Assembly: GCA_030065585.1 (NCBI GenBank)
Contig: JASJED010000074.1
Location: forward strand, 1-38,617
Direction: 5' to 3'
Origin: Desulfobacterales bacterium
Lineage (GTDB): Bacteria > Desulfobacterota > Desulfobacteria > Desulfobacterales > UBA5852
DNA length: 38,617 nucleotides
Position 1 is the first letter of the stretch. Each line of letters starts with the position of its first letter. The translations under genes were made by a program, and so were the position numbers. Below the pieces are notes generated by a model. It was not told the origin of the DNA. It saw only the letters and a program-made list of their open reading frames with translations, and did no database searches. Below, in pieces: positions 2,059 to 34,530 of this stretch.

Positions 2059-2068
2059 TTTTATGCGC

Positions 2069-2192
2069 GACGGTTTCGTAATAAATCCGAGATCAAGGCT
2101 TGCGAAGCCCGAGGAATGAGGCGTACATATCGTACGCCGCAGTGACGAGGGGTGAAGCGTAACGCCGATATCGGGCTTATTACAAAACCGTT
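2069..2192. repeat. 124-bp dispersed inverted-repeat element, copy 1
   Basis: Terminal arms GACGGTTTCGTAATAAATCCGA / TCGGGCTTATTACAAAACCGTT; central hairpin GGCGTAC-atatc-GTACGCC; homologous to the copies at 14358, 31307 and 34408. Confidence 0.9.
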
Positions 2193-2218
2193 TTAGCGAC
2201 AACCGCAGGAGGTGCCTC

Positions 2219-2686
2219 ATGACGCAACTAAAACCCGGAGACCCGGCCCCGGCCTTCGAGGCCCCGGACCAGGACGGCAACATGGTAAGCTTGGGCGACT
2301 TCAACGGCCGCAAGCTCTTCCTCTTTTTCTACCCCAAAGCCAACACCTCGGGGTGAGCCACCCAGGCCCAGGCGGTGCGGGACGCACGGCCCGAACTGGA
2401 TCACAACGGCGTGGCGGCCATCGGGATCAGCCCGGACACGCCCCGCAAACAAAAGAATTTCGACGCCAAGTACACGCTGGGTTTTCCGCTGCTGAGCGAT
2501 CCCGAGCATCGCATCGCGGAAGCCTACGGCGCGTGGGGTGAAAAGAAGATGTACGGCAAGACCTTTATGGGGATCGTGCGCACTTCGGTGCTGATCGACG
2601 AGCAGGGCCGGGTCACGGCGATATGGCCCAAGATCAGCCCCAAGAATACGGTACCTGAGCTGTTCAAGGCGCTAACAGGCGGTTGA
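2219..2686 (+). CDS. bcp: Bcp/PrxQ peroxiredoxin, probable selenoprotein (Sec at codon 46)
   Basis: RBS GCAGGAGG, then ATG 2219: MTQLKPGDPAPAFEAPDQDGNMVSLGDFNGRKLFLFFYPKANTSG-TGA(2354-2356)-ATQAQAVRD..., in frame with the ORF-track ORF 2375-2686 (GISPD, FPLLSD, YGAWGEKKMYGK, VRTS); the TGA occupies the peroxidatic Cys of PxxxT/SxxC. Confidence 0.88.
2362..2399 (+). promoter_or_regulatory. Putative bacterial SECIS hairpin
   Basis: GGC-g-GTGCG-GGA-CGCAC-g-GCC at 2371-2391; the apical loop begins with G about 24 nt after the UGA; CCAG/CTGG could form a lower stem. Confidence 0.65.
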
Positions 2687-2699
2687 AAAACGATTGCGC

Positions 2700-3137
2700 T
2701 TAGCGCTGCAGTTTGAAGCGAATCCGCAGGATGCCGTCCTGATGGCTGGAGGAGGTGATACGAAATTTGCCGATCGCGCCGGTGGAAGCCACATGAGGAC
2801 CGATGCAGGGGCAGCGGTCATAGTCGCCAACCGCCACAATGCGAATTCGGTCGCCGGCATCCTCGGGCAGCCGCGAAAGATCAAAGGCCTGCCGGGCGGC
2901 GGCGAGATCCATGAAATTCTCCGTCAGGGGCAGATCGGCGGCGATCACGGCGTTTACCTCCGCTTCGAGCCGGCGTTCCTCCACGCTGCTCAGCGGTCGC
3001 GCGAAGCGGTAGTCGCATTTTGATTTCTTCTTCTCGATGTGAGCGCTGAAACAGCGCGGGCAGTCGAAAAGGCGGCCCATGGCCTGGTTGAGGATATGTT
3101 CGGCGCTGTGCATGCGGGGATCGAATACCTTGACCAT
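2700..3137 (-). CDS. Free-standing AlaX-type tRNA editing protein (tRNA_SAD domain)
   Basis: HSAEH (HxxxH) and CIGPH (CxGxH) Zn motifs; RIRIVAVGDYDRCPC; start taken at MVKVFDPRM. Confidence 0.8.
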   Translation of the reverse strand: MVKVFDPRMHSAEHILNQAMGRLFDCPRCFSAHIEKKKSKCDYRFARPLSSVEERRLEAEVNAVIAADLPLTENFMDLAAARQAFDLSRLPEDAGDRIRIVAVGDYDRCPCIGPHVASTGAIGKFRITSSSHQDGILRIRFKLQR

Positions 3138-3343
3138 CTTGATTTCCCATCGCTGTTGATGATTGCTCGGGCTTCCTACCATCATTGGGGCCAGATGGGA
3201 ATAGCCCGCTGCCGCAAAACCGATTACGGTTGGTGCCAGGATCCCGCGCGGTTTGACAGGACCGCCAAAGCCCTCTATCTTTTAATCATCGTTTAGATTA
3301 GACGTCGAATTCCGGTAGCTAGCCCCCGGCAGCCGAGGATAGA

Positions 3344-3529
3344 ATGATGGGAACCTCCCGCAAAAAACGCAGCCCGGCTGACAGGCGCTCGGGTGTCGAT
3401 CGTCGCCGTACCAATCCCCGTCGCTACACCGGTATTGAAAGACGCATCGATCCCGATTGTCGCAGCAGCCGCGACCGACGTGAAGGCAATGGACCCTGGT
3501 CTGAACTTCAGATGCCGCATATTCGTTAG
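3344..3529 (+). CDS. Small Arg-rich DRR-repeat protein
   Basis: RBS GAGGA; DRRSGVDRRR..RRYTGIERR..DRRE; 61 aa. Confidence 0.6.
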   Translation: MMGTSRKKRSPADRRSGVDRRRTNPRRYTGIERRIDPDCRSSRDRREGNGPWSELQMPHIR

Positions 3530-3691
3530 GATCCTACCTGACAAGTTTGGGATGCACCAGGATGACCCTGAGCCTTGTACCCTTGGCCATGGCACTCAGC
3601 GGTTGATTGGCGCCGGCCGGTTGCCGACGGTGATCATATCGCCTTAACCGGTGTCTTCCTCGACCCCGTATCCACCAGCGGAGGAATGCAG

Positions 3692-3883
3692 ATGGACGAC
3701 CGAATTGCCCAGGGAAGCGGTGACACGCAAAGTGTTCGCATCGATATTCCCCAGAGTCTGATGTCGAGGGTGCACAACCACTGCAACAAGCGCAACATTA
3801 CCATTCAGGAATTTATTCGCGACGCCCTTTCCGAAAAACTGGAAATGGCCCACAAAGAACGCCGACGCAAACAGCGCGTCTAA
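3692..3883 (+). CDS. Small ribbon-helix-helix (CopG-like) protein
   Basis: RBS GGAGGA at 3680-3685; SVRIDIPQSLMSRVHNHCNKRNITIQEFIRDALSEKL fits a beta-alpha-alpha RHH pattern. Confidence 0.65.
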   Translation: MDDRIAQGSGDTQSVRIDIPQSLMSRVHNHCNKRNITIQEFIRDALSEKLEMAHKERRRKQRV

Positions 3884-4242
3884 AACCGGATGGTATTCCG
3901 CACGTTCACTTTTCCTGCCGCCTTTCCATTCGTGCGGCGCCGCTCCACTCCCATCGTTTCCGCCGGATGCTGGCCAATCGGGTGACGAAGCGTTTCAAGC
4001 CCCACATGGCCTCCTTGAAGATTACCCATTCGTAAGAAATCACGGATCTGACGATTCCGGAAGATTATGCGCGTAAACGGACCCCCATTCATCGCTGCTG
4101 GCAATTAAGGGTCTGAACCGCTACGGGTCGAATGCCGACCTGGGGTGTTGATTCGCAAGCGAAACCGCGTCCTCAAACGCCGGTCAGCGGTGATTGGCGC
4201 ACACGCCGATTGCAATGGTTGCGGGATACAAGGTGTCAGTGA

Positions 4243-4701
4243 TCAGGTGGCCAATCGCTGCGCCGCCCAGGCCAAGGCGGCATACCGGGCGGTTTTGCCC
4301 GCAGCCACCAGGAGGGTGAAGCGCCACAGGGGAATGCGCAGGATGCCGCCCACGAAGCACAGGGGATCGCCCACCACCGGGGCCCAGGCCATCAGCAGGG
4401 ACCAACTGCCCCAGCGCTCGTACCAGCGCTCTGCCCTGAGGCGCGCCTGCGCATCGATTTTGAGCCCGCGTCGGATGATGCAGGGGCCTCCCCAGATGCC
4501 CAGCGCCCATGTCGTCATGGCCCCCAGGGTGTTGCCGACGGTGGCGACAACCACCGCCGCGCCGGGGTTGATCTGATGAATCACCAGCGCCACAAGCAAC
4601 CATTCGGAAGCGATCGGTAAGACGGTCGCGGCCAGAAAACTGATACCCAAGAGGGCCGGCAGGCCCCAGTCGATGAGAAGCGCTTCCATGTCGGAGGTCA
4701 T
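4243..4701 (-). CDS. YqaA/DedA (VTT domain) membrane protein
   Basis: SFLAATVLPIASE, GNTLGAMTTW, WAPVVGDPLCFVGG, GKTARY. Confidence 0.9.
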   Translation of the reverse strand: MTSDMEALLIDWGLPALLGISFLAATVLPIASEWLLVALVIHQINPGAAVVVATVGNTLGAMTTWALGIWGGPCIIRRGLKIDAQARLRAERWYERWGSWSLLMAWAPVVGDPLCFVGGILRIPLWRFTLLVAAGKTARYAALAWAAQRLAT

Positions 4702-4719
4702 TCGCGGATCGGGGTCTGA

Positions 4720-5322
4720 TCAGTCTTCGACCGCGTAGCCATACTCTTTTGCGTTGACATTGTGGCGTTTTTCCCACCCCAAGGTCGAGGAGGGCGTCGG
4801 ACCGTAGTCATGCCCCGGCCAGACGACGGTATCTTCAGGCAGTTCCATCAGACGGCGGATAGAGGCCCCCAGGGTGGGCCGATCGCCGCCGGGAAGATCG
4901 GTGCGACCGCTGTCGCCCACAAAGAGGGTGTCCCCGGTGAAGAGATTGCCGTCGGCATACAGACAGATGCCGCCGGGCGTGTGGCCGGGGGTGTGGATCA
5001 CCTTCAAGCCAAGGGTGCCCATCTGAATCTGGTCTTTGTCGGAAAGGAAAACATCCGCCCCCGGAAATCCAGCGGCATCGTCGGTGTGGATCATGACGCG
5101 TGCCCCGGTTTGGGCCTTGAGCTGCGCATTGCCGGCCGTATGGTCGCCGTGGGCGTGGGTGTTGACGATCGTCGTAATGGTCAGACCCTCATCGGCGGCG
5201 GCCGCCAGGATGGCCGCCACGTCCGCTCCGGGATCGATTACCAAGGCCTGGCAGGTGCTTTCGCATCCCACCAGATAGCAGAAATTGTCCATCATGCCCA
5301 CTTCGAGCTGTCTGATGATCAT
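4720..5322 (-). CDS. Metallo-beta-lactamase fold hydrolase (glyoxalase II-like)
   Basis: THAHGDH, HTPGHTPG, FTGDTLF, PGHDY. Confidence 0.92.
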   Translation of the reverse strand: MIIRQLEVGMMDNFCYLVGCESTCQALVIDPGADVAAILAAAADEGLTITTIVNTHAHGDHTAGNAQLKAQTGARVMIHTDDAAGFPGADVFLSDKDQIQMGTLGLKVIHTPGHTPGGICLYADGNLFTGDTLFVGDSGRTDLPGGDRPTLGASIRRLMELPEDTVVWPGHDYGPTPSSTLGWEKRHNVNAKEYGYAVED

Positions 5323-5499
5323 CGATGCCTCCGTTTTGCAATTTTAGTCATTTTGCTTTAATGAGATCGTAAATTCCATAGGCGCCCATTATCCGATAGG
5401 CATTTAAAATAAATCGACTGCCGGTGCAAGCGGCACCTGGCAGGGCACGGCCCGCGCATTGGCTGTGCGCCAATTCTTACCATAAGGAATATCCTCGCC

Positions 5500-6417
5500 A
5501 TGCTACCGCCGTCCGGAAACGCAAGCCGTGGTCAGGTCGCCGTCAGCCGGTTGGTCGGCGGCATCGTGCTGACACGGCCTGTCTTTCTCCTGATGTTGCT
5601 TGTGATGCTGCCCGGCTGCAGCCGCATGGTCTCCAACGCGACCAGCGATCTGGCGGACAACCTGGCCCAGGCCATCGCCAACAATGATGACCCGGATACG
5701 GTCAGGGCCGGGGGCCCGGCCTATCTGCTCATGATGGACGGTCTGGTGCACCGCGATCCGGAAAATCCAGACCTGTTGATGCGCGCCGCCGCGCTCTACA
5801 GCGCTTACGGCGAGGCATTTGTCGACGACCCGGACCGGGCCCGCCGACTTTCTCAGCGGGCCTTGCGCTACGCGACACGTGCGCTTTGTGTCCACGCGCC
5901 GGACGACTGCCATTTGCGCCAGGCCGATTTCGACCTATTCGAAGCCCGCCTTCAGCGGGTCGATGAACAGGAGGTGCCGTTGTTCTACACCTGGGGGGCC
6001 GCCTGGGCCGGGTGGATTCAAGCCCGCAGCGACGATCTCGACGCCGTGGCCGAGTTGGCCCGCGTCGAGGCGATCATGCAGCGGATCGCGGTGGTGGATG
6101 AAGATTATCAGCGGGGTAGTGCGCATCTATACCTGGGGGCTTTTGCCATCCTCGTGCCGCCGGCCATGGGCGGTAGACCCGAGGTGGCCCGACAGCATTT
6201 CGAACGGGCGATTGCCCTTTCCGGCGGTGAGAATCTCATGGCCAAGGTGGTTTACGCCCGTCGCTATGCCCGCATGGTCTACGACCGTCCGCTCCACGAC
6301 CGCCTGCTGATGGACGTGTTGGCGGCCGACCCCGATGTGCCCGGGATGGTTCTCTGGAACATTCTGGCCCAGGAGCAGGCCCGGGAACTGCTGGCCAGCG
6401 CCGATGATTTTTTCTAG
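5500..6417 (+). CDS. TRAP transporter TatT component (TPR-like lipoprotein)
   Basis: Lipobox LPG|C; PPAMGGRPEVARQHFERAI, YARMVYDRPLHDRLL; directly upstream of dctP; the true start may be later. Confidence 0.85.
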   Translation: MLPPSGNASRGQVAVSRLVGGIVLTRPVFLLMLLVMLPGCSRMVSNATSDLADNLAQAIANNDDPDTVRAGGPAYLLMMDGLVHRDPENPDLLMRAAALYSAYGEAFVDDPDRARRLSQRALRYATRALCVHAPDDCHLRQADFDLFEARLQRVDEQEVPLFYTWGAAWAGWIQARSDDLDAVAELARVEAIMQRIAVVDEDYQRGSAHLYLGAFAILVPPAMGGRPEVARQHFERAIALSGGENLMAKVVYARRYARMVYDRPLHDRLLMDVLAADPDVPGMVLWNILAQEQARELLASADDFF

Positions 6418-6491
6418 CCCGCGGGCGGCTTGGCCCCCAAGAAGCGCCGGGGCGCCTTGCAACCCTAGAAAAGGGTGTTAGGTTCGATGAC

Positions 6492-7556
6492 ATGAATCGA
6501 CCGAATGGCATAACGACGGAAACCCGGGAAAGATTTATGTTGGCTTGTAATTGGCGGTATTGGATCGCCCTTCTGCTGCTGGTGGTCTTTGCGGCTCCGG
6601 CCCAGGCCGTAGTTCTCAAGGTGGCCACCCTCACGCCGGAGGGGTCCAGTTGGATGCGCAAGATGCGCGCGGGGGCCGAGGAAGTGGCCCAGGCCACCGA
6701 CCAGCGCGTGCGCTTCAAATTCTATCCCGGCGGTGTGATGGGCAACGACCGCGCCGTACTGCGCAAGATTCGCGCGGGGCAGCTCCACGGCGGGGCCTTT
6801 CAGGGGGGAACCCTTGCCGGCTACTACGGCGACATTCAAATTTACGGTCTGCCGCTGACGTTCAAGTCCCTCGGCGAAGTCCACCACGTGCGCCAACACA
6901 TGGATCAGGATCTGGTCGAGGGGCTGGAGGCCAACGGCTTCGTCACCTTCGGCCTGGCCGACGGGGGTTTCGCCTATATCATGTCCAATCAGCCGGTGGC
7001 CGACATCGAGGCTTTGGGCCGCTTGAAGGCCTGGGTTCCGGCCAATGACAAGATGATCCTGGATGCCATGCAAGGCTTTGGCTTGAGCCCGATTTCACTG
7101 CCCATCGCCGATGTGCGCACAGGCCTGCAGACCGGCTTGATCGATACCGTGGCGATTTCACCGATCGGGGCCATTGTGCTGCAATGGCACACCCAGGTGA
7201 AATACCTGACCAAGATGCCGCTGGTCTATCTTTTCGGCATCCTGGCGCTGGATCGCAAAGCCTTCTCCCGAATCGCCCCGGCCGATCAGGCGGAGGTGCG
7301 GCGGATCATGACCCGGGTCTGGCGCGAGATGGACGCCATGAACCGCGACGACAATGCCAAGGCACTCGAGGCCTTGCGCACCCAGGGGATCGAATTTATC
7401 GAACCGGCGCCCGATGCCCGCGATATATGGTACCGACGGGCGGAACCCATCCACCGCCAAATCATTGAGGCCGGGCATATCAGCCCCGCCGCCATCGACA
7501 AGTTGGAACGTCTGCTGAATGACTACCGAGCCCGGTTGGCCCGCCAAAATCAATGA
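6492..7556 (+). CDS. dctP: TRAP substrate-binding protein DctP (TatP)
   Basis: Signal peptide ending AQA; LKVATLTPEGSSW, FKFYPGGVMG, GLQTGLIDT; the start may be ATG 6537. Confidence 0.9.
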   Translation: MNRPNGITTETRERFMLACNWRYWIALLLLVVFAAPAQAVVLKVATLTPEGSSWMRKMRAGAEEVAQATDQRVRFKFYPGGVMGNDRAVLRKIRAGQLHGGAFQGGTLAGYYGDIQIYGLPLTFKSLGEVHHVRQHMDQDLVEGLEANGFVTFGLADGGFAYIMSNQPVADIEALGRLKAWVPANDKMILDAMQGFGLSPISLPIADVRTGLQTGLIDTVAISPIGAIVLQWHTQVKYLTKMPLVYLFGILALDRKAFSRIAPADQAEVRRIMTRVWREMDAMNRDDNAKALEALRTQGIEFIEPAPDARDIWYRRAEPIHRQIIEAGHISPAAIDKLERLLNDYRARLARQNQ

Positions 7557-8058
7557 CCCCGCCGTCCGTTCCCGTCTGACCCGGGTGCTCGGTCTGCTCT
7601 ACCGGCTGGAGGACCTGTTGATTGCGGCCCTCCTCACGGCGACCATGGGGCTGGCCCTGTTTCAGATTATTTTGCGCAACGTGATGGGAACGGGGATTGT
7701 CTGGGGTGACGTCCTGGTCCGGATTCTGGTGCTCTGGATCGGCATGGCCGGCGCCATGGCCGCCACACGCGAGGGCAAGCATATCAGCATCGATTTGCTG
7801 ACGCGGTTTTTAACCCCCGGCCTGCGGCGGGTGGCGAACAGCCTGACCGCCCTGTTTGCCGCGGTGATCTGCCTGGCGGCCGCTTATTTCAGCCTGCAGT
7901 TCGTGCTGAGCGAATACGCCGCCGGCGACCTGGTGTTCGGGCGCATCCCTTTCTGGGTGTGCGAGTCCGTCCTGCCGCTGGCGTTCAGCATCATTGGATT
8001 GCGCTATGGTACCCAGTTTCTGATCCATGTCGCGTTCCCGCCGGGAGAGGCCTCCTGA
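7519..8058 (+). CDS. dctQ: TRAP small permease DctQ
   Basis: Four TM segments; QIILRN, LWIGMAGAMAATREGKHISID. Confidence 0.88.
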   Translation: MTTEPGWPAKINDPAVRSRLTRVLGLLYRLEDLLIAALLTATMGLALFQIILRNVMGTGIVWGDVLVRILVLWIGMAGAMAATREGKHISIDLLTRFLTPGLRRVANSLTALFAAVICLAAAYFSLQFVLSEYAAGDLVFGRIPFWVCESVLPLAFSIIGLRYGTQFLIHVAFPPGEAS

Positions 8059-9335
8059 TGGCCGCCCTCCTGTTTGTGGCGCTGGCCCTGCTGGCGCTTC
8101 TGGGAGCGCCCCTGTTCACCGTACTGCTGGCGGTGGCCATGGTCGGTTTCCATCTTCAGGGGATCGATCTGTCCGCCACAGCCATCGAGATCTACCGCTT
8201 GGCCGACATGCCCCTGTTGTTGGCCCTGCCCTTTTTTGCCTTTGCCGGTTACATCATCGGGCACAGCCAGACATCCCGGCGCCTGGTCCGGTTGACCCAG
8301 GTTTTCCTGGGATGGCTGCCGGGGGGGCTGGCCATCGTCTCCCTGGTGACCTGTGCCCTGTTCACCGCCTTTACCGGTGCGTCGGGCGTGACCATCGTGG
8401 CGTTGGGGGCGCTGCTCCACCCGGCCCTGATCCAGGACGGCTACCGTGAACGCTTCAGTTTGGGGCTCGTGACCTCCTCCGGGAGTCTGGGGCTTCTGTT
8501 TCCGCCTTCCGTGCCGCTGATCTTATACGGGGTCGTCGCCCAGCAGATGGGGGTCGGGCCGTTGTTCGCGATCGAAGACCTCTTCTGGGCCGGATTGATC
8601 CCCGGCATTTTAATGATCGCTTTGCTGTCGTGCTGGAGTCTGTGGGCCAACCGGGAGAAGATCCGCGCGGCCGAGCGGTTTTCCGCCACCGCCGCCATGG
8701 CGGCCCTGCGCGAGGCCATCTGGGAAATACCGCTGCCGATTTTTTTGATCATCGGCATCTACGGCGGGTTCCTGGCCATCTCCGAAGCGGCGATCATTAC
8801 GGCGGCCTATGTGGTGGTGGTCGAAGTTTTCATCTACCGGGAAATCGGTCTCGGTGAGCTTCCGGCGATCATGCGCGATGCCATGGTGATGGTGGGCGGC
8901 ATCCTGTTGATTCTGGGGGTATCGCTGGCCTTTACCAACTATCTGATCGACGCGGAGGTGCCCACCCGCCTGTTCAACCTGATCCAGCGGCATGTCAGTG
9001 AGCGGATCATCTTTCTCATGCTGCTCAATATCCTGCTTCTCCTGCTGGGCGCTTTTCTGGATATCTTTTCGGCCCTGGTCATCATGGTGCCCCTGATCCT
9101 GCCGGTGGCGGTCAGCTACGGCGTCAATCCGGTCCATCTGGGCATTATTTTCCTGGCCAACATGCAGATCGGCTATTTCACCCCGCCGGTGGGCATGAAC
9201 CTGTTCATCGCCAGCTACCGCTTCGAAAAGCCGGTCGCCACCCTCTATCGGGCCACGATTCCTTTCATGCTGGTGCTGCTGGCATCGGTGCTGATCATCA
9301 CCTACTGGCCCCCGCTGAGTTTGTCGTTTCTTTAA
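8058..9335 (+). CDS. dctM: TRAP large permease DctM
   Basis: TGATG coupling to dctQ; GSLGLLFPPSVPLILY, NPVHLGIIF, TPPVGMNLF. Confidence 0.92.
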   Translation: MAALLFVALALLALLGAPLFTVLLAVAMVGFHLQGIDLSATAIEIYRLADMPLLLALPFFAFAGYIIGHSQTSRRLVRLTQVFLGWLPGGLAIVSLVTCALFTAFTGASGVTIVALGALLHPALIQDGYRERFSLGLVTSSGSLGLLFPPSVPLILYGVVAQQMGVGPLFAIEDLFWAGLIPGILMIALLSCWSLWANREKIRAAERFSATAAMAALREAIWEIPLPIFLIIGIYGGFLAISEAAIITAAYVVVVEVFIYREIGLGELPAIMRDAMVMVGGILLILGVSLAFTNYLIDAEVPTRLFNLIQRHVSERIIFLMLLNILLLLLGAFLDIFSALVIMVPLILPVAVSYGVNPVHLGIIFLANMQIGYFTPPVGMNLFIASYRFEKPVATLYRATIPFMLVLLASVLIITYWPPLSLSFL

Positions 9336-9608
9336 GTCGCCGACACTTGCATCGTGCCACACGGTGGATTGCGCCATTGCGTCGGCTGAATTCGTTTGGC
9401 GTCACACCCCCCCTTCTGGTGAGAGACCCGACGAGGTTTGACCAATCCGGCATAATCGCAACAAAGTTGCTTTTCTTTCACATGAAATGAAAGTAACCTA
9501 TAGAAATCGTCGATGGACCTGGCGGTTTGGTATCCGTAGACTTACACTGTTCGGCCGGCGTGGTGCGTGTGAGAATGGTGCGGAGATACGAGAATAGACG
9601 ACAATTGA

Positions 9609-9624
9609 TGGTATGGAAATTGCT
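9609..9624 (+). promoter_or_regulatory. Putative sigma54 -24/-12 promoter
   Basis: TGGTAT-GGAAA-TTGCT with correct spacing, about 65 nt upstream of ATG 9690. Confidence 0.55.
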
Positions 9625-9689
9625 TTCGTTTAGCGCAATGATACCGGCATCGATGACCCACTACCCTCATCTGACAAGGAAATGCCCAT

Positions 9690-13837: not shown

Positions 13838-14326
13838 ATGCGCAGACAAAAAGTATTCGTCACCAGTGACGGTAAGGCCACCTTCGTCTGTCCCGCGTGC
13901 GCGCGCTCGCGGACCGTGGATGCGGCCCGCAACCCCACGCTTTCACGCGCCGCCAGGGTGCGGGTCAAGTGCCCCTGTGGCCACCAGTATCCCGTGAGCC
14001 TGGAACGCCGCCGCTATTTCCGCAAGGCGGTTGATTTGCGCGGCACGTTTGTCCAAACGGTCGACGGTCGGCACGTGGACGGCGGGCCAATGGTCGTCCT
14101 CGACCTGTCGCGCACGGGGATGCGGATCCGGTTAAACGAGAGCCGGCCCGTAAGGATCGGCGACACCCTCGTGGTCAAGTTCCAGTTGGACGATCGTCAG
14201 CAGTCGTTGATTCACAAAGAAAGCATCGTGCGTCGGATCGATGGGGTCGATCTGGGCACCGAGTTTACCGCGTCCAACGTGATCGATGCCAGCACGCGGG
14301 CCATCGGATTTTACCTTACCGGTTGA
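13838..14326 (+). CDS. PilZ-domain protein with an N-terminal Zn-ribbon
   Basis: RBS GAGGTG; CPAC...CPCG; PilZ motifs RRYFR (RxxxR) and DLSRTG (D/NxSxxG). Confidence 0.88.
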   Translation: MRRQKVFVTSDGKATFVCPACARSRTVDAARNPTLSRAARVRVKCPCGHQYPVSLERRRYFRKAVDLRGTFVQTVDGRHVDGGPMVVLDLSRTGMRIRLNESRPVRIGDTLVVKFQLDDRQQSLIHKESIVRRIDGVDLGTEFTASNVIDASTRAIGFYLTG

Positions 14327-14357
14327 ATACGATGAACTCGCTACAAGTTATCTTACA

Positions 14358-14481
14358 GACGGTTTTGTAAACACTTCGAGAGACGGCGTGAGATGCCCGG
14401 GGAATGAAGCGTATTTAAAGTACGCTGAACTGGACGAGGGCTGAAGCGTAACGCCGCTATCGGACTGTTTACGAGACCGTC
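14358..14481. repeat. 124-bp dispersed inverted-repeat element, copy 2
   Basis: GACGGTTTTGTAAACAC...CTGTTTACGAGACCGTC; central AGCGTAT-ttaaa-GTACGCT; lies between convergent genes; extra half-arm GATGAACTCGCTACAAG at 14331. Confidence 0.85.
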
Positions 14482-14483
14482 AA

Positions 14484-15104
14484 TCAGCGGTTCTCGAGAT
14501 CCTTGATCCGCTGCCGTGTCAATCGGCGCATGGCGCGGGACAATTCCCCGGGGGCTTCCAGAATCTGGCGGTAGGCTTGCAGCGCTCTCGGTTGATCCTC
14601 TAACCATTCATAATTGCGGGCCAGTTGGAAACGGGTGACAAAGTCCGCTGGACGGGCCTGGCGGGCAACGGTCAGGCTGCGGATGGCGGCGTGGGGGTCG
14701 CCGCGTCTTTCGTAATGCTGCGCCAAGGCGGCCTGCAGGGCAAAGCGAAGATCTTCATCCGATCGGTGCGCCTCGTTTTCCAGCGCGTTCACTAGATATG
14801 CCTCCGTGTGCTGATCCGCCGCGATCGATTGGAATGCGGCCGGGCCGAGTTTGTCGGTGATCTGCTGCCGGATGAACATTTCCCGGCGCCGGGTATGAAA
14901 ATCGAATTCGGTCTGGCAGTCCTTGGCGCTGGGGAAGAAATTGGCGCGGAGCATGGGCAGCGCAATCGAGATCACCGCCGCGACCACAAGCAGGGCCAGC
15001 GGATCGAGGCGGCCACTGGTCAGCATGCGATAGACGAGGATGCTGGCAACGACGATTGCGCCGATGGCGGCTAAGGCAATAAGCAGAACCCGGTTGAACG
15101 TCAT
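14484..15104 (-). CDS. Membrane-anchored TPR-like protein
   Basis: Two N-terminal TM helices; C-terminal TPR-like helices (LAQHYERRGD..A, LARNYEWLEDQPRALQAY); ATGA coupling with the upstream gene. Confidence 0.75.
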   Translation of the reverse strand: MTFNRVLLIALAAIGAIVVASILVYRMLTSGRLDPLALLVVAAVISIALPMLRANFFPSAKDCQTEFDFHTRRREMFIRQQITDKLGPAAFQSIAADQHTEAYLVNALENEAHRSDEDLRFALQAALAQHYERRGDPHAAIRSLTVARQARPADFVTRFQLARNYEWLEDQPRALQAYRQILEAPGELSRAMRRLTRQRIKDLENR

Positions 15105-20657: not shown

Positions 20658-20664
20658 TGTTGAA

Positions 20665-26068: not shown

Positions 26069-26086
26069 CACCCGAAAGAACACCGT

Positions 26087-27205: not shown

Positions 27206-27263
27206 ACCTGCTGCCGGGCGATAACAACCGCGGCCTCGTCGCTGTACTTAGAAAGGATCATCG

Positions 27264-28928
27264 ATGCACCAAGCTGCCAAGAATCATGACGTTTCGCTGG
27301 CCCCTACCGGTGAAGTCTTCGACTTGCCGTGCGAGAAAGACTATGCCGACGAATTCAACCGATTGCAGGCGCTGGCCCGGCGTCACCGCGACGACGGACG
27401 CGAGGTCGTCGTCGTCATGGGCGTCGGTTTTGTCGGCGCGGTGATGGCTGGTGTGGTGGCCGATGCATCCCCGGAAGGATCGGACCGATCGCCTTATTTC
27501 GTGATCGGTATGCAGCGGCCTTCGACGCGTTCTTACTGGAAGATACCCTATCTCAACCGTGGCCTGGCACCGGTGGAGGCCGAAGATCCTGAAGTGGCAC
27601 CTTTGATCGAGCGTTGCGTGAAAGCGAAACAAACGCTCACCGCCACTTTTACCTATGACGCCCTCCAGTTGGCGGATATCGTGGTGGTCGATGTGCAGTG
27701 CGATTATCTCAAGGAGACCCTGGGCGATGTCCGTCAGGGCTATGCCGATATCCGTGCCCTGGAAGAAAGTCTGAAGGTGATCGGTCAGAAGATTCGACCC
27801 GAATGCCTGGTGTTGATCGAGACCACGGTGCCGCCCGGAACAACGGAGTATGTGGCCAATCCAATCATCAAGAAAGCCTTCGAAGAACGCGGCCTGACCC
27901 GGGTGGAGCCTTGTCTGGCGCACAGCTTCGAGCGCGTCATGCCCGGGCGCGACTATGTGGCCTCCATCCGTGAATTCTGGCGGGTGTGCAGCGGCATCAA
28001 TGCCGACGCCCGCGATAAGGTGGTGGCCTTTCTTTCCAACGTGATTGATGTTGCCAATTTCCCCCTGACGGTGCTGGACCGCCCGATCGAGAGTGAAACC
28101 TGCAAGATTGTGGAGAATTCCTACCGAGCCACCACGCTGGCCTTTCTGGATGAGTGGAGTCTGTTTGCCGAGCGCAACGGGGTGGATCTGCACAAGGTGA
28201 TCGAGGCCATCAAGGTGCGCCCCACGCATTCGAATATGATTTTTCCCGGTCCGGGTATCGGGGGGTATTGTCTGCCCAAGGACGGGGGTTTGGGCGTCTG
28301 GGCTTACAACACGCTCATGGGATTTGAGGACGAAATTTTCAAGATGACGCCCCTGGCGATCGACATCAATGATACGCGGGCTTTACGGGTCGCACAGCTC
28401 GTCCGTGACGCCCTGCGAAACATGGGTAAAATCGTGGCGGCCTCGCGGGTCGCGCTACTGGGTGCCTCCTATCGAAAGGACGTGGGCGATACGCGTTACA
28501 GCGGCTCCGAGCTCATCGTCCGCAAACTGGCCGAAATGGGGGCCGAACTGGTGGTTCACGATCCCTACGTGAAGCGTTGGTGGGAGTTGGAAAAACAGGA
28601 CAGCTATCCCCGGCCGGGCTATTCGATGGCGCGGTTTTTCCGCAATCAGGAAGGGCTGCGCGACATTGCGGTTAAAAAACAAATGGCCGATGTGCTCAAA
28701 GGGGTGGACGCCGTTATCCTGGCTGTCGGACATCAGGCTTACCGTCAATTAGACCCGGATACCGTGATTCGGCAGACGGGCCGCCCCGCTGCCGTCATCG
28801 ACTGTTTCAACCTTTTGAATGATGATCAGATCGAACGCTATTTCGAGTTGGGCTGCGAGGTCAAAGGTCTTGGACGGGGACATGTCAAACGCATCAAGGA
28901 CCGCGTGGCCTGCCGCCCGGCCTCCTGA
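27264..28928 (+). CDS. Nucleotide-sugar dehydrogenase (UDP-Glc/GDP-Man dehydrogenase family)
   Basis: MGVGFVG, IETTVPPGTT, CKIVENSYR, PGPGIGGYCLPKD, YRKDVGDTRYS. Confidence 0.92.
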   Translation: MHQAAKNHDVSLAPTGEVFDLPCEKDYADEFNRLQALARRHRDDGREVVVVMGVGFVGAVMAGVVADASPEGSDRSPYFVIGMQRPSTRSYWKIPYLNRGLAPVEAEDPEVAPLIERCVKAKQTLTATFTYDALQLADIVVVDVQCDYLKETLGDVRQGYADIRALEESLKVIGQKIRPECLVLIETTVPPGTTEYVANPIIKKAFEERGLTRVEPCLAHSFERVMPGRDYVASIREFWRVCSGINADARDKVVAFLSNVIDVANFPLTVLDRPIESETCKIVENSYRATTLAFLDEWSLFAERNGVDLHKVIEAIKVRPTHSNMIFPGPGIGGYCLPKDGGLGVWAYNTLMGFEDEIFKMTPLAIDINDTRALRVAQLVRDALRNMGKIVAASRVALLGASYRKDVGDTRYSGSELIVRKLAEMGAELVVHDPYVKRWWELEKQDSYPRPGYSMARFFRNQEGLRDIAVKKQMADVLKGVDAVILAVGHQAYRQLDPDTVIRQTGRPAAVIDCFNLLNDDQIERYFELGCEVKGLGRGHVKRIKDRVACRPAS

Positions 28929-29001
28929 TCGACTGGATCTCCGGGATGCCGGCGGCCGTACCCCGCTGCATCTGGCCGTCTTCCGAGGCCATCGCGAAAT
29001 G
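28927..29001 (+). pseudogene. Isolated ankyrin-repeat remnant
   Basis: DRLDLRDAGGRTPLHLAVFRGHREM matches the ankyrin consensus D..G.TPLH.A...GH; no credible start and no further repeats. Confidence 0.55.
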
Positions 29002-29219
29002 AGAGGCGCCCGCGTCCGCAAACCCGATGAATTTAAAGCGGGCTGTGTTGACGCGTCTGTAGCGATCAAGGCAGGGTCTTGCGGCAAAGGGGCGGATGGA
29101 TGCGATGCCCATAGGGCCGCATCGAACTATTGGCAGACCCCATCAGAGGTGGGGGGAGTAAACGCAACGAGGGCGACCACGATTGGCAGACCGCACATTA
29201 CCCAAAGAAGCCCCGGGGC

Positions 29220-29795
29220 CTATGGATCTTCATTCAAAGCATCGTCCTGCCAATATTTGGTCCCTTTGACCGTGGCCTGAAGGGCTAAACCGCTTTCGGT
29301 CAACTGGTAAATCGTGATGTTGTCCAGCAAAGCCTCGCCGCCGACCGCGGCCCCCATATCGCTGGCCTTGGCAGCGGCATCGGCATGCCCGCCAAACTCC
29401 CAGCCGCTTTCGACAAAGCGTTTCATGGTTTCATGGTCATGGAAAATGAAGACGGCGCGGAAATCCTTGATACCCAGTCCCAGGCCGATGCCTAATTCAC
29501 CCATTTTCATATAGGTCCGGCGCCGGTCGCCATTGTTGTGGACGACACCGTAGCCGCCGCCAAAACTGGCGAGGATAAGATTGACGTTGGCATTGCTGAA
29601 GACGGCATACCCCGGGGCCGACGCAATCTGCGATTTGGCCTGGGGACGAACGCGGTAGAGATTCGAGAGGGTTTCCTGCTGCATCTCCCGAATTGCCTGA
29701 CGCTTGTTTTCCGGACGGTGTCCCTTACTGGTCGCACAGGCCGTTAAAACGCTGGCCATGGCCACAACGCACAACACGGTCTTGATCGGTTTCAT
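29220..29795 (-). CDS. YSC84/SYLF-like lipoprotein
   Basis: Lipobox LTA|C; APGYAVFSN, GGGYGVV, GLGLGIKDFRAVFIF, GWEFGGHADAAAK, GTKYWQD. Confidence 0.85.
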   Translation of the reverse strand: MKPIKTVLCVVAMASVLTACATSKGHRPENKRQAIREMQQETLSNLYRVRPQAKSQIASAPGYAVFSNANVNLILASFGGGYGVVHNNGDRRRTYMKMGELGIGLGLGIKDFRAVFIFHDHETMKRFVESGWEFGGHADAAAKASDMGAAVGGEALLDNITIYQLTESGLALQATVKGTKYWQDDALNEDP

Positions 29796-30095
29796 TTTTG
29801 ATATCCTGCCATGATCGCGATTCGTCCACCAGCGGCGGAGCCTTAGACGGTGATAACCTGCATCGTTATTCAAATATCGGGAAATCCGGTCTAGATCTTT
29901 AATGCCTGCATTTTATCCCTGAATCGTTTAAGACACTGATTATGGCATTCGGTCTAAAGGCTGATGAGCGCATGGCCTTCGCGACATCCTGGTAGAGGAC
30001 CGTCGATGGCCGCATGACGATTATGGATTGAATCATTACAAGCGGTTGGCGGCCGCGAACCGTCCACCTTTTACCCCGCATTCGAGGAGGCGCCC

Positions 30096-30425
30096 GTGGC
30101 GTATTCACATGATTTGGAAAAACGCATCGATGCCAGTGTTGGGGGTTGGGGGCTGGCCAAGAAGAAGATGTTCGGTGGGATCTGCTATCTGCTGGCGGGC
30201 AACATGTGCTTCGGAATTTACGGGGACTTCCTGATCGTGCGCCTGGGCAGCGACGCGGCGGCGAAACCCTATCTGGCCCAAGCACATGTCAAGCCCATGG
30301 ACATTACCGGACGGCCCATGAAGGGCTGGGTCATGGTGGCGCCGGCCGCCTACGACGGGCCGGAGCAGCTTCGGCCATGGCTTTCCCGGGGAACGCAGTT
30401 CGCTCAGACCCTGCCGCCCAAGTAA
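30096..30425 (+). CDS. TfoX/Sxy N-terminal domain protein
   Basis: RBS GAGGAGG plus GTG; KKMFGGICYLLAGNMCFG, GRPMKGWVMV. Confidence 0.9.
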   Translation: MAYSHDLEKRIDASVGGWGLAKKKMFGGICYLLAGNMCFGIYGDFLIVRLGSDAAAKPYLAQAHVKPMDITGRPMKGWVMVAPAAYDGPEQLRPWLSRGTQFAQTLPPK

Positions 30426-30503
30426 GCGAGGGTAAGGCCTTCATGGGAATTCAGCCCCTGTATACGCGCTTGTCATCGCCGTTCTGGTCAATGGTCGCTG
30501 TCT

Positions 30504-31226
30504 TCAACACATCCCGCCGTTGACGCCGATAACCTGTCCGGTGACATAGGCGGCGTCCTCCGAGCACAGGAAGCGCACGACGCGGGCCACCTCTTCGGGG
30601 CGGCCGATGCGCGCCATGGGGATCATCTGTTTCAGCGCGTCCACCGGTACATCGCGTATCATTTCGGTGTCGATCAGGCCGGGGGCTACCGCGTTGACCC
30701 GGATGCCCAGGCGGCCGACCTCGGCCGCCAGCGCCTTGGTGGCCCCGATCAGACCGGCCTTGGCGGCGGAATAGTTGACCTGTCCGCGGTTGCCGATCAC
30801 GCCGGCCACGGACGAGATGGTGACCACCGTGCCGCTTTTCTGGCGCATCATTTTCTTGATGACCGGCTTGGTGACGTTGTAAAAGCCCTTCAGGGCCACG
30901 TCGATCACCGTATCCCATTTGCCCGGCTTCATGGTCAGAAACAGGTCGTCGGCCGTAATACCGGCATTGTTCACCAGGGCATCGATGGTCGCGGCACGCC
31001 CGATGATGTCTTTTATAACCGGCCCGGCCTGGTCAGGATCCGCCACGTCGAAGGCCACGGTTTCGACGGTGCCGCCGATGGCTTCGATGGCCGCCGTCGT
31101 TTCGCGGGCCGTATCGGCGTTGGAATGATAGGTGGCCACGATGTGATAGCCGTTGCGGGCCAGTTCGATGGCGATGGCTTGCCCGATACCCCGGGTACCG
31201 CCGGTAATGATTGCTGTTTTTTCCAT
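30504..31226 (-). CDS. fabG: 3-oxoacyl-ACP reductase (SDR)
   Basis: TGGTRGIG, NNAGIT, GNRGQVNYSAAK, GQVIGVNGG. Confidence 0.88.
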   Translation of the reverse strand: MEKTAIITGGTRGIGQAIAIELARNGYHIVATYHSNADTARETTAAIEAIGGTVETVAFDVADPDQAGPVIKDIIGRAATIDALVNNAGITADDLFLTMKPGKWDTVIDVALKGFYNVTKPVIKKMMRQKSGTVVTISSVAGVIGNRGQVNYSAAKAGLIGATKALAAEVGRLGIRVNAVAPGLIDTEMIRDVPVDALKQMIPMARIGRPEEVARVVRFLCSEDAAYVTGQVIGVNGGMC

Positions 31227-31306
31227 CAGCGTCTCCTTGGATGACGAAATCTAATCGGTGAAGAAGGCCGGGGGGGCTGTCGTGTCAACCGGCCGGCTGA
31301 TTTCCC

Positions 31307-31430
31307 GACGGTTTCGTAAAACGTCCGATATCGGCGTTACGCTTCATGCCTCGTCATTGCAGCGTACCGAAAGTACGCTCTATTCCTCAGCATTCGCAAG
31401 CCTTGATCTCAAACCTTTTACGAAGCCGTC
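31307..31430. repeat. 124-bp dispersed inverted-repeat element, copy 3 (opposite orientation to copies 1 and 2)
   Basis: GACGGTTTCGTAAAACG...CCTTTTACGAAGCCGTC; central AGCGTAC-cgaaa-GTACGCT; followed by half-arm ATTTTACGAGTCCATC. Confidence 0.9.
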
Positions 31431-31656
31431 TGAAATATGACATTTTACGAGTCCATCTTTTCTGTATTCAGGATAATCCGCTGGGCCGATGCTGCGTTAA
31501 CCCGGCGCCATTTCTAATACGAAAGCCCTTGGTCTGTAAAGCACGGCACGGTGGTGAGGCGTCCCGCGGGCCTGCAACGCCATTGGACTTGCATAAAATT
31601 GCCAGTTGACATTTGATAGTGACGTTTTTGATCGAACCGACACGCTAAGGAGCGCC

Positions 31657-32811
31657 ATGCTATTCCAATTTCAGACCGCCGGCCGGATTTATTTCGGCTG
31701 CGGTGAAGCCGCCCGACTCGGTGCGGTCGCCGCCGAATGGGGCCGGCGGGTTTTGTTCATGACCGGTCGTCATCCCGAACGCTGGGATGATCTGCGGGCG
31801 CAGCTGGCGGCGCAGCGCCTCGATGCCACCGTCTGGCGCATCGAGACCGAGCCCACGGTCGCGATGATCGACCGGGCCGTGGCCACGGCCCGCGAGACGG
31901 GCGCCGACGTTGTGGTGGCGGTCGGGGGCGGGAGCGTCATCGATGCGGGCAAAGCCGTGGCGGCCATGCTGGCCAACGACGGCTCCCTCATGGATTATCT
32001 GGAAATCGTGGGACGGGGCCGGGCGCTCACACAGCCTTCGCAACCCTGTATTGCGGTTCCCACCACGGCCGGCACGGGGGCCGAGGTCACCCGCAACGCC
32101 GTGCTAAGCGCCGTCTCCCACAAAGTCAAAGTGAGTCTGCGCAGTCCGTTCATGATGCCCTGTGTGGCGATCGTCGATCCCGAACTCACGGTGGCCATGC
32201 CCCCTGCGATGACGGCCGGCACGGGCATGGACGCCATGACCCAGTTGATCGAGGCCCTGGTGTCCTCGAAGGCCAACCCCCTGACGGACGGGATCTGCCG
32301 GGAAGGCCTGCCCCTGGCCGTGCGCTGTCTGCCGCGGGCCTTCGATGACGGTCGCGACCTGGCGGCCCGGGAGGGGATGGCGCTGGCCAGTCTTTGCGGA
32401 GGACTGGCCCTGGCCAACGCCGGTCTGGGGGCCGTGCACGGCTTGGCCGGCCCGCTGGGCGGAATGATCCACGCGCCGCACGGTATGATCTGTGCCGCGC
32501 TGCTGCCGCCGGTCATGGCGGCCAATATCGAGGCCCTGCGACGGCAGGCGGCCGATTCGATTTATCTGGAGCGCTATCGGGAAGTGGCCCGTCTTCTGAC
32601 CGGCCGTCTGGACGCCCGGGAGAATGAGGGCGTCGACCACGTGCGTCGCCTGGTCGACCAGTTGGCGCTGCCGGGACTGTCGACCCTGGGCCTCCAGGCC
32701 TCCGACTTGGAAGCGGCCGCGGCCAAGGCGTCTCGCGCCAGCAGCATGCAGGGCAACCCGGTCGTCTTGAGCGCCGATGTGCTGGAAGGCATTTTAAGAT
32801 CGGCGTTCTGA
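31657..32811 (+). CDS. Iron-containing alcohol dehydrogenase
   Basis: RBS AAGGAG; GGGSVID, PTTAGTGAEVT, GLGAVHG, APHG. Confidence 0.93.
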   Translation: MLFQFQTAGRIYFGCGEAARLGAVAAEWGRRVLFMTGRHPERWDDLRAQLAAQRLDATVWRIETEPTVAMIDRAVATARETGADVVVAVGGGSVIDAGKAVAAMLANDGSLMDYLEIVGRGRALTQPSQPCIAVPTTAGTGAEVTRNAVLSAVSHKVKVSLRSPFMMPCVAIVDPELTVAMPPAMTAGTGMDAMTQLIEALVSSKANPLTDGICREGLPLAVRCLPRAFDDGRDLAAREGMALASLCGGLALANAGLGAVHGLAGPLGGMIHAPHGMICAALLPPVMAANIEALRRQAADSIYLERYREVARLLTGRLDARENEGVDHVRRLVDQLALPGLSTLGLQASDLEAAAAKASRASSMQGNPVVLSADVLEGILRSAF

Positions 32812-32827
32812 GACGCGCTCTACGGAC

Positions 32828-33781
32828 CTACCTATCCGCATGCCTGGGCGGCCTTTCCAGGAATGATGCGATCTGCGGCCAGAGTCGGACGACGTCTTCC
32901 GGTGTCGACCAGACAATTTCGGGATCCGATTTGAACCAGGTAAACTGACGTTTGGCATAGCGCCGGGTGTCACGTTTGATCAACGCCACGGTTTCGTCCC
33001 AGGCCGTTTTTCTGGAAAGATACTCGACGATATGGCGATAGCCGATGGCTTGCATCGGTTTGAGATCGGCATGGTAGCCGCGGTCCAGCAGCGATTGAAC
33101 CTCGGCCACCAGACCTTCCGCGACCATGGCTTCGACCCGTTGGTTGATGCGCGCGTAAAGGACGTCGCGATCGATTTCCAGGCCGATCTTGAAGGTTGTA
33201 TAGCGCTTTTGCGCAAATCCGTGGCGGCGCTGGAGTTCGGACAATGAGCGGCCAGTGGTCTCGAGGGTCTCGAGGGCGCGGATGATGCGAAAACGGTCGT
33301 TGAGGTGGATGCGGGCGGCACTTTGCGGATCGCGGCGGCGCAGTTCGGCATGCAACCCGGCCACGCCTTGCGTCTCGGCCCGCCGCGCCAGTCTTTGGCG
33401 GATCTGGGGATCAGGCCTCCGGGCAGCGAACAAGCCGTATACCAGCGCTTTGATGTAAAGGCCGGTGCCGCCGGCCACCACGGCCGGTGACGCGGCCTGC
33501 CGGAGACGGTCGATGCAGTCGGCGGCCAGGACCGCGTAGCGCACGGCGTCGAAAGACGTATCCGGATCGACCACGTCGATCATGTGATGCGGGACGGCGG
33601 CCTGTTCCTGCGGCGTTGGTTTGGCAGTGCCGATATCCATGTAACGATAGACCTGCATGGAATCGGCCCCCACGATCTGGCCCCCGATGCGTTGGGCCAG
33701 GCGAATCGCGGCGGCTGTTTTGCCGATGCCGGTCGGACCGCAGATGATGACGATGCGGGGGCGTCTAGAATCCGTGCGCAT
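32828..33781 (-). CDS. miaA: tRNA dimethylallyltransferase
   Basis: GPTGIGKT, ADSMQVY, DIGTAKP, GGTGLY, TRRYAKRQFTWF. Confidence 0.97.
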   Translation of the reverse strand: MRTDSRRPRIVIICGPTGIGKTAAAIRLAQRIGGQIVGADSMQVYRYMDIGTAKPTPQEQAAVPHHMIDVVDPDTSFDAVRYAVLAADCIDRLRQAASPAVVAGGTGLYIKALVYGLFAARRPDPQIRQRLARRAETQGVAGLHAELRRRDPQSAARIHLNDRFRIIRALETLETTGRSLSELQRRHGFAQKRYTTFKIGLEIDRDVLYARINQRVEAMVAEGLVAEVQSLLDRGYHADLKPMQAIGYRHIVEYLSRKTAWDETVALIKRDTRRYAKRQFTWFKSDPEIVWSTPEDVVRLWPQIASFLERPPRHADR

Positions 33782-33906
33782 GCCGCGCAGATAATCAGAC
33801 TGTGGGCCTAATCGCAAGCGGAATCTGGGTCGCCGCACAGCTTCCGGTCAGACCCGACACGAAGCACGTCAAGCTTTCGCGCCACTTGAAAATCAGGCTT
33901 TTTTAT

Positions 33907-33933
33907 TTGACATTAAATGGTCGATGCTATAAC
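33907..33933 (+). promoter_or_regulatory. Probable dsrC promoter
   Basis: TTGACA at 33907 and an extended -10 TGcTATAAC; the spacer is short (15 nt). Confidence 0.5.
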
Positions 33934-34016
33934 TAAACTCGAAATTAAATTAGGCTTGCAGTGAGTATAACCGGCGGGACGCCGAATAAAATTCATTTAA
34001 AGGAGGGTATGAGTAA

Positions 34017-34337
34017 ATGGCCAACGTAGAATACATGGGCAAGACGTTTGAAGTAGATGAAGACGGTTTCATCGGTAATTATGAAGATGGAAAGTGTGAA
34101 GAATGGATCCAGTACGTCAAGCAGCAAGAAGGTATCGACGAACTGAGTGAAGAACACCGCAAAGTCATCACGGTGCTGCAGGAGTACTACGAGAAAAACG
34201 GTATCGCTCCCATGGTGCGGGTCCTTTCCAAAGTCACCGGCTTCAAACTGAAACACATCTATGAGCTGTTCCCTTCAGGTCCGGGCAAGGGCGCCTGTAA
34301 AATGGCGGGTCTCCCGAAACCGACCGGCTGCGTCTAA
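34017..34337 (+). CDS. dsrC: DsrC sulfur relay protein
   Basis: RBS AAGGAGG; VDEDGF, GIAPMVR, C-terminal GPGKGACKMAGLPKPTGCV with both conserved Cys. Confidence 0.97.
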   Translation: MANVEYMGKTFEVDEDGFIGNYEDGKCEEWIQYVKQQEGIDELSEEHRKVITVLQEYYEKNGIAPMVRVLSKVTGFKLKHIYELFPSGPGKGACKMAGLPKPTGCV

Positions 34338-34375
34338 TGCTGCGGCCTTGACGGCTGTTGCTTAGAACCGATTGC

Positions 34376-34407
34376 AAGGCCCTGCCCCAGGCAGGGCCTT
34401 TTCATTT
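34376..34407 (+). terminator. Intrinsic terminator after dsrC
   Basis: AAGGCCCTGCC-cca-GGCAGGGCCTT-TTCATTT. Confidence 0.8.
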
Positions 34408-34530
34408 GACGGATTCGCAAAAAGCCCGAGAGCGGCGTTATGCTTCAGCCCTCGTCATTGCGGCGTACTTATGTACGCCTCATTCCTCGGGCTTCGCAAG
34501 CCTTGCGCTCGAACTTTTTGCGTATCCGTC
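34408..34530. repeat. 123-bp dispersed inverted-repeat element, copy 4
   Basis: GACGGATTCGCAAAAAGCCCGAG...CTCGAACTTTTTGCGTATCCGTC; central GGCGTAC-ttat-GTACGCC. Confidence 0.9.

Follow-up and report, generated by a model that had tools for sequence, protein, structure and literature searches.

Short mobile repeats comparable to the family described here are known from several microbial hosts. They include the 160- and 169-bp miniature inverted-repeat transposable elements (MITEs) tied to ISMac2, an insertion sequence (IS) of the IS1182 family, in Methanosarcina acetivorans (PMC3852290). In the Bacillus cereus group, bcr1 elements of ~155 bp are flanked by 5-bp direct repeats, are transcribed and carry compensatory changes, while the Chunjie MITE of Geobacter uraniireducens, 178-235 bp long, has 21-bp terminal inverted repeats and 9-bp direct repeats (both PMC3184786). 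Here we describe an intergenic repeat family from a Desulfobacterales bacterium (assembly GCA_030065585.1), first noticed in contig JASJED010000074.1, whose 38,617 nucleotides (positions 1 to 38,617) are hereafter called the window. A preliminary description, made from the letters alone, had reported four copies of a 123-124 bp element at 2069-2192, 14358-14481, 31307-31430 and 34408-34530, two per strand, and the sequences confirm these. The family is almost certainly a MITE of an IS1182-like insertion sequence, and its arms change over time while remaining complementary to one another.

The window's own genome, G000, is a metagenome-assembled genome (MAG) of 4.23 Mb in 361 contigs, 85.7% complete and with 58% G+C; other G numbers denote related genomes, C their contigs and L loci within them. 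A profile built from the four window copies, which share a mean column identity of 84% when aligned, gave 177 matches on the contigs of G000, representing 142 distinct loci with a strand split of 70 to 72. A second profile of the full-length unit, searched with nhmmer, recovered 144 loci. The repeat family is real and abundant, far beyond chance, at a density of ~1 per 29 kb across the genome rather than the ~1 per 10 kb first estimated from the window. The preliminary description is partly confirmed: its observation was largely right, and its boundaries, copy density and some of its interpretation require revision, as set out below.

The unit extends beyond the limits originally given. Within the 60 nt flanking 98 full-length copies lies an extra conserved block, GATGGACTCGTAAAAAGTCATGTTTCA, 5′ of the earlier start, and the first 19 nt of this block are another copy of the arm, giving three arms in total (outer-left, inner-left and right). 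The left end had been missed, and in element orientation the unit runs 27 nt further 5′. A full unit of ~151 bp consists of an outer-left terminal repeat, GATGGACTCGTAAAAAGTC, an 8-nt spacer and a 124-bp imperfect palindrome whose two arms are further copies of that same terminal repeat. The 151-nt consensus is non-coding, with outer-left and right termini that are inverted copies of GAYGGNCTCGTAAAAAGTC. The third arm is carried by 85 of the 144 loci (those whose match begins at model positions 1-10), and it is not peculiar to G000, because the profile match begins at model positions 1-20 in 46 of 80 loci among the matches listed from other genomes. Seven of 46 full copies are 167-170 bp long instead of ~151 bp, a size variant longer by some 18 bases. 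Conservation of the unpaired motifs GAGGAAT, GACGAGG and TAACGCC, noted earlier in the window, is confirmed. Separately, one stretch of a related genome (G006:C3:711354-712062) holds three element matches ~300 bp apart, which form a tandem cluster and not dispersed single copies.

When the outer-left end is taken as the boundary, a 6-bp direct repeat flanks the element. Among 46 copies matching the whole 151-nt model, 17 have perfect duplications, 8 agree at five of six positions and 10 at four of six. A first count, over 43 copies with a clear extension, gave 18 perfect and 8 five-of-six duplications, against 0.6 and 1.3 expected from a permutation in which left and right flanks of different copies were paired. 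The duplicated bases are 74% A+T in a genome of 58% G+C, with the consensus A-A-N-N-W-T (AANNWT). From the left boundary first proposed, no flank match rose above 3 of 6. The initial impression that there was no clear target-site duplication is thus wrong for the family; the duplications are decayed at all four window copies, which explains why none was seen there. Short forms show duplications of their own: of 32 copies without the extension, 4 match at five or more of six positions directly at the 124-bp core, where 0.5 would be expected. Because this exceeds expectation, the core alone seems to move at times, with the inner-left arm serving as its end.

Searching G000 for the arm motif outside the known copies revealed a partner insertion sequence. 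It spans C285:147-2045 (1,899 bp), bears the inverted motif at its other end and contains an open reading frame (ORF) of 582 aa. The encoded protein matches the Pfam domains DDE_Tnp_1_6 (63.2 bits) and DUF772 (35.5 bits), both above cut-offs, and its best NCBIfam model is 'IS1182 family transposase' (E 2.1e-39, covering positions 37-487 of 488). A truncated second copy of the IS lies at a contig end in G000 (C348), and relatives of the transposase with 85-86% identity occur in three congeneric genomes. Eight full-length IS copies were found in all, one in G000 and seven in G001, G003 and G006. Perfect 6-bp duplications flank six of the eight (AATATT, ATTATT, AAGGTT, AAAGAT, TTACTT and AATGTT), and one further copy agrees at five of six positions. 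Positions 133-151 of the MITE consensus are identical, at 19 of 19 bases, to the IS terminus in G001. The repeat's ends had been proposed for comparison with IS termini of its own genome, and termini of 19 bp prove to be common to IS and MITE.

A MITE and its autonomous partner are typically recognised by having the same ends, the same duplication length and the same target preference, and on this basis the repeats can almost certainly be assigned as a MITE of an IS1182-like DDE insertion sequence. The DDE transposase of the 1.9-kb IS would move the 151-bp unit in trans. The earlier suggestion of a non-autonomous mobile element is upheld by the 6-bp duplications, the termini shared with the IS and the empty orthologous sites described below. 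The window itself holds no convincing transposase, in line with the earlier statement, the best tblastn match with the partner transposase being 50 aa long at E 0.001. Past the termini, the interior of the MITE has no similarity to the IS, which rules out a simple deletion derivative. At least one other short repeat family in G000 has the same ~18-nt terminus and a different interior (C12:12985, C207:8113(-), C261:3121(-), C239:883 and C242:2670), and its copy at C12:12985 has AATTTT on both sides. The same transposase probably moves several MITE families.

A different kind of mobility had also been considered, in which a RAYT/HUH tyrosine transposase would move REPIN-like elements in the form of single-stranded hairpins. 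The long hairpin, the compensatory changes and the mainly intergenic location all resemble REPINs (PMC3116915), and G000 encodes three genes with a Y1_Tnp domain. However, no copy of the repeat flanks any of these genes: the nearest copies lie 2.9 and 4.9 kb off, and the third gene is on a contig without copies. A REPIN/RAYT system is further contradicted by the 6-bp target duplications and by the termini, which the repeat shares with a DDE-type IS whose duplications are the same. Handling of the repeat as single-stranded DNA by such an enzyme can be set aside as scarcely credible.

Sites that are occupied in one species and empty in another provide the third line of evidence for mobility. Empty sites in relatives, which the preliminary description had recommended looking for, were found for copies 2 and 4 of the window. 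For twelve distinct G012 copies, both flanks fall on a single G000 contig; eight of these copies are shared, two have no counterpart at the G000 site (C215, C289), one is rearranged and one is ambiguous. For G011, four of the seven copies mapped to G000 have no element there. The G000 sites that lack an element present in G012 or G011 lie on C215, C289, C151, C161 and C11. Shared IS termini, 6-bp duplications and empty orthologous sites together identify the family as a MITE and not as an undescribed RNA family or a REPIN.

The family is widely distributed. In a BLAST-type search, 12 of 12 congeneric genomes contained the element, as did 15 of 16 genomes from the family; of 24 genomes that each represent another family of the order, 8 contained it. 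An exact-pattern scan of GTDB representatives returned at least 118 stretches. The matches listed come from an isolate, Desulfosarcina cetonica JCM 12296, and from MAGs. The labels of the listed MAGs are Desulfobacterales (including Desulfosarcina, Desulfococcus and Desulfonema), Syntrophales (including Smithella) and Desulfatiglandales, and there are lone contigs with the label Nitrospirota or Rokubacteria. To all appearances, this abundant MITE family of marine sulfate reducers and syntrophs is undescribed. In contigs from three marine-sediment DNA runs, bins containing the element are over-covered ~100-fold because many copies from many organisms pile up, and no clean empty-site joint was found in these public-read contigs. 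In one related genome, another repeat of ~260 bp (locus L189, G012:C17, 1241-1496) adjoins a MITE copy and recurs at G000 C166:13743-14006, on an unrelated contig.

The most distinctive property of the family is the way in which its arms vary. They differ between copies and stay complementary within each copy, and the central stem alternates between GGCGTAC/GTACGCC and AGCGTAC/GTACGCT; both patterns were first seen in the window and both are confirmed. Across 115 G000 copies, the switching pair of the central stem is A:T in 51, G:C in 46, G:T in 7 and A:C in 6. The column pairs that rank highest in the same 115 copies by mutual information with average product correction (MI-APC) fall almost all on the antidiagonals of the palindrome; they belong to the arms and the central stem and also to an interior 5-bp helix (65-69 with 108-112).

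Shared ancestry was removed by comparing 57 disjoint pairs of nearest-neighbour copies. At paired columns these contrasts show 371 single changes and 139 double changes; in 87 of the double changes both copies have a Watson-Crick pair. When the columns are re-paired at random, the mean is 7.2 compensated doubles (maximum 22 in 500 trials), and sliding the partners by 1-3 columns yields 5-12. The 87 compensated doubles occur at 27 different pairs, and 45 of them are swaps of transversion type. A cross-taxon alignment of 46 sequences, made up of the four window copies and 42 from other genomes, behaves similarly: changes on both sides are seen at 18 of the 34 predicted pairs and in 89 cells, compared with 7.1 pairs and 17.2 cells in shuffles (0 of 500 reached the observed values) and 7-22 cells in slid controls. 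In this alignment, the central-stem and GGAAT/GACGAGG columns are invariant by construction, being required by the scan pattern. Covariation in these larger alignments is strong, far above shuffled and slid controls, and supports as an observation the earlier proposal that a folded structure is maintained by selection or conversion.

Covariation of this kind might also arise by descent from a few master copies, or from transposase variants that need both ends matched. The same transposase must bind both ends of one IS, and linked high-frequency variants indicate subfamilies, with the state of the central stem tracking arm pair 34-145 (columns 97 and 145, MI-APC 0.16). Nevertheless, the compensated doubles persist in the independent contrasts across 27 pairs, and the interior helices, which are not IS termini, covary as well. 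More direct evidence comes from nine same-locus copies, compared between G000 and G012 (eight) or G011 (one), for which positional orthology was judged from flanks only. Their paired columns differ by 51 single and 39 double changes; compensation is seen in 35 of the doubles, whereas 1000 trials of random pairing average 1.7 and never exceed 11, and slid controls give 0-3. In one of these pairs, C289:21358 with L206, the two copies have in common a rare arm variant that marks common descent, and yet they differ by five mirrored changes. Subfamily descent alone is largely refuted by the nearest-neighbour contrasts and the same-locus pairs, and we regard the master-copy explanation as very improbable.

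The orthologous pairs also provide a measure of rate. Divergence between orthologues in the arms is 100/445 = 0.225, close to the value at fourfold-degenerate sites of flanking genes (664/2,888 = 0.23), which serve as a neutral proxy. The interior helix stands at 0.26, the third arm and spacer at 0.33 and the central loop at 0.575. Mirrored changes make up more than half of all arm changes. After insertion, therefore, the arms change at about the neutral rate while staying complementary.

Selection on a fold normally slows stems. In large palindromes arm-to-arm gene conversion, and in quasi-palindromes templated mutation, cause arms to evolve in concert with their pairing kept. We suggest that the palindrome would occasionally fold back during replication or repair, and that mismatches in the fold-back would be erased or copied onto the other arm, either by hairpin mismatch correction or by templated switching in the quasi-palindrome. 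Such correction would conserve pairing without slowing substitution. It is favoured here because erasing or mirroring mismatches leaves the substitution rate unchanged, unlike selection on the fold. We give arm-to-arm correction at the DNA level an even or slightly better chance of being the cause of the covariation. As an overall explanation, an IS1182-like MITE with DNA-level correction of its arms is probable, with considerable room for doubt.

Several observations weigh against this explanation. Concerning the partner, its transposase scores 135.7 bits against the NCBIfam IS1182 model, whose curated cut-off is 270, and the G000 copy of the IS has no duplication (TTGGTT versus AACTTT). Concerning correction, nine orthologous pairs are a small sample, and conversion-tract clustering is not above chance, with 4 adjacent mirrored changes versus 3.7 expected. 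A subfamily in other genomes (L048, L051, L059, L088, L089, L103 and L118) keeps a 3-nt arm mismatch block, its left arm reading GGCAAAG where the right arm requires GGCTTCG. The unpaired core motifs diverge at only 0.11 and the central stem at 0.056, both below the neutral proxy of 0.23. The two strands, moreover, are not equivalent. As RNA, the element strand is the more stable one in 107 of 115 copies, with a mean of -58.6 versus -48.6 kcal/mol. On one fixed strand, single mismatches in the independent contrasts are of G:U type in 142 cases and of A:C type in 56, and once four G:U-rich pairs are removed they still number 90 versus 51 (binomial p 0.0013), so that the absence of a G-U strand preference reported from the window does not hold in the larger sample. 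Across taxa the corresponding figures are ~99 and ~13, partly owing to three ancestral U:G pairs. The substitution spectrum of paired columns is symmetric overall (C>T 115, G>A 142; A>G 233, T>C 189), and unpaired columns have no mutation bias that matches the G:U excess. A symmetric DNA process predicts neither the two asymmetries nor the constraint on the core motifs; a transcript or a strand-specific single-stranded intermediate would.

The slow core motifs and central stem need either selection or ectopic conversion among copies. Ectopic conversion among ~150 copies could hold the core near consensus. In a donor search for ectopic replacement every G000 copy had near-consensus paralogues closer than its orthologue, a result that favours neither possibility. 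As an alternative to DNA-level correction, the core of the MITE may also be a structured RNA or a strand-specific single-stranded form, produced in one set orientation with respect to the element, in which selection on the fold keeps both the pairing and the unpaired motifs. This reading is consistent with the strong covariation of every helix, even of interior ones that do not serve as ends for the transposase, with the greater stability of the element strand, with the G:U excess with no matching bias in unpaired columns and with the slow evolution of core motifs and central stem. Set against it are the near-neutral rate of the arms, which is unusual for stems under selection alone, and the random orientation relative to neighbouring genes (36 copies co-oriented and 36 anti-oriented in tandem contexts, according to rough ORF-based gene calls). 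By the same calls, the remaining copies lie in divergent (28) and convergent (28) contexts or at contig edges (16). A scan of copies 3 and 4 for promoters of sigma-70 type found none. Many copies are also species-specific, and such fast turnover fits a parasite better than a host function.

Nor does Rfam contain a match. A scan of the window at gathering thresholds returned 0 matches, and a permissive scan of 4 loci with copies, at E up to 1, returned only SprD (E 0.46), outside the element. As an identity, the undescribed structured RNA suggested earlier gives way to the MITE. Contigs from one metatranscriptome run (X12) include element sequence; this shows neither transcription nor strand nor ends, and we draw nothing from it. 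Overall, we consider an additional RNA or single-stranded form of the core possible and rather unlikely. Slightly less likely is the stricter proposal that the 124-bp core is a functional structured RNA or strand-specific single-stranded module of fixed orientation, whose fold and unpaired motifs (GAGGAATGA, GACGAGG and TAACGCC) would be preserved at every locus by purifying selection. Should the strand asymmetry and core constraint prove to be selected, this would be a MITE carrying a functional module, and if the stricter proposal is true, a MITE-borne functional RNA or protein-binding module would be widely spread across Desulfobacterales and Syntrophales.

The four window copies differ in completeness and in genomic setting. 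Copy 1 (2056..2192, + strand) comprises a 124-bp core at 2069-2192 and a decayed remnant of the 5′ extension at 2056-2068, corresponding to positions 18-150 of the long-form model. Its neighbours are a CxxCxxCC-domain gene (1118-1882) on one side and the next + strand ORF on the other, and there is no recognisable duplication at its flanks. A short ctgacacccgaaacctgac-like motif precedes it (window 2035-2060), and a similar run occurs upstream of the G000 copy at C11:5199; this motif may be a separate small repeat.

Copy 2 (14331..14481, + strand) is a full 151 bp, with third arm and spacer at 14331-14357 and core at 14358-14481 (model positions 1-151). Its flanks are GAATAC (14325-14330) and AATCAG (14482-14487), and it is inserted between two convergent stop codons, the left gene encoding a PilZ domain. 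The orthologous site is empty in two congeners, G007 (L174 ~1975) and G011 (L173 ~1975), where it reads TTGAATCAGC / CTGAATCAGC. In both empty sites the stop codons almost abut, and in the window (14325-14487) the duplicated bases keep the stops of both neighbouring genes.

Copy 3 (31307..31457, - strand) has the top model score among the window copies and is likewise a full 151 bp (core 31307-31430, third arm and spacer 31431-31457; model positions 1-151). Its flanks, TTTCCC (31301-31306) and TTTTCT (31458-31463), agree at 4 of 6 positions. As RNA, its element strand folds at -58.7 kcal/mol (z -5.25) versus -43.0 (z -3.43) for the opposite strand. The copy lies between divergent genes for an SDR protein and an iron-containing alcohol dehydrogenase (Fe-ADH); in five congeners these genes are ~25 kb apart, and there is no synteny at this site.

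Copy 4 (34408..34557, - strand) combines a core at 34408-34530 with a diverged third arm at 34531-34557 (model positions 10-151). It directly follows the terminator (34376-34400) of dsrC and precedes a UPF0047 gene; the dsrC neighbour at 34017-34400 matches Pfam DsrC with 110.9 bits. Its flanks, TTCATT (34401-34406) and TTCATA (34558-34563), look like a decayed duplication, the core-side one being displaced by 1 nt. G011 (L176) and G012 have an element at this site, interrupted in G012 by the end of the contig; in G002 (L180) and G010 (L179) the site is empty. In the metatranscriptome run, contig depth sums to 23,619 across 34141-34407 and to 153 across the bin of the copy 4 element.

The family matters to annotators and binners, as its copies break MAG assemblies (14 of the 142 G000 copies lie no more than 150 bp from a contig end) and adjoin key genes such as dsrC. 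It also offers a natural data set on how short palindromes stay palindromic, with around a hundred copies per genome and orthologues whose paired arms drift neutrally. Our literature search turned up no account of this element, nor of any MITE in Desulfobacterales, although a name confined to databases or unpublished work is possible. Work on IS1182 with MITEs included none on this group, and four of the element's motifs, searched as text, returned only 3 unrelated primer matches.

Among described systems, the ISMac2 MITEs resemble this family in being non-coding, ~150-170 bp long and multi-copy, with termini of ~25 bp shared with an IS1182-family partner. They differ in host domain, presumably in sequence, and in having a duplication of 4 bp or none, compared with 6 bp here, and the portion of their description on which we draw mentions no third arm or hairpin covariation (PMC3852290). 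The bcr1 elements are alike in size, in target duplication, in insertion polymorphism between relatives and in compensatory changes that keep the fold. Unlike them, the present family belongs to an unrelated host phylum, makes duplications of 6 rather than 5 bp and has an identified partner IS, whereas transcription is documented for bcr1 (PMC3184786). Chunjie, also a MITE of a 'deltaproteobacterium' with a very stable hairpin at the RNA level, is a different family (PMC3184786). REPINs similarly place two inverted repeats in a long hairpin, show common compensatory changes and are intergenic, but they are linked to RAYTs and moved by HUH tyrosine transposases, in contrast to the duplications and DDE-IS termini found here (PMC3116915). 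Documented cases of arm conversion and quasi-palindrome correction concern much longer palindromes or laboratory hot spots, whereas here the proposed mechanism would act on ~25-bp arms within a 124-bp element. This appears to be a new family of a well-known kind, uncommon in its third arm copy and in the measurable concerted evolution of its arms in situ.

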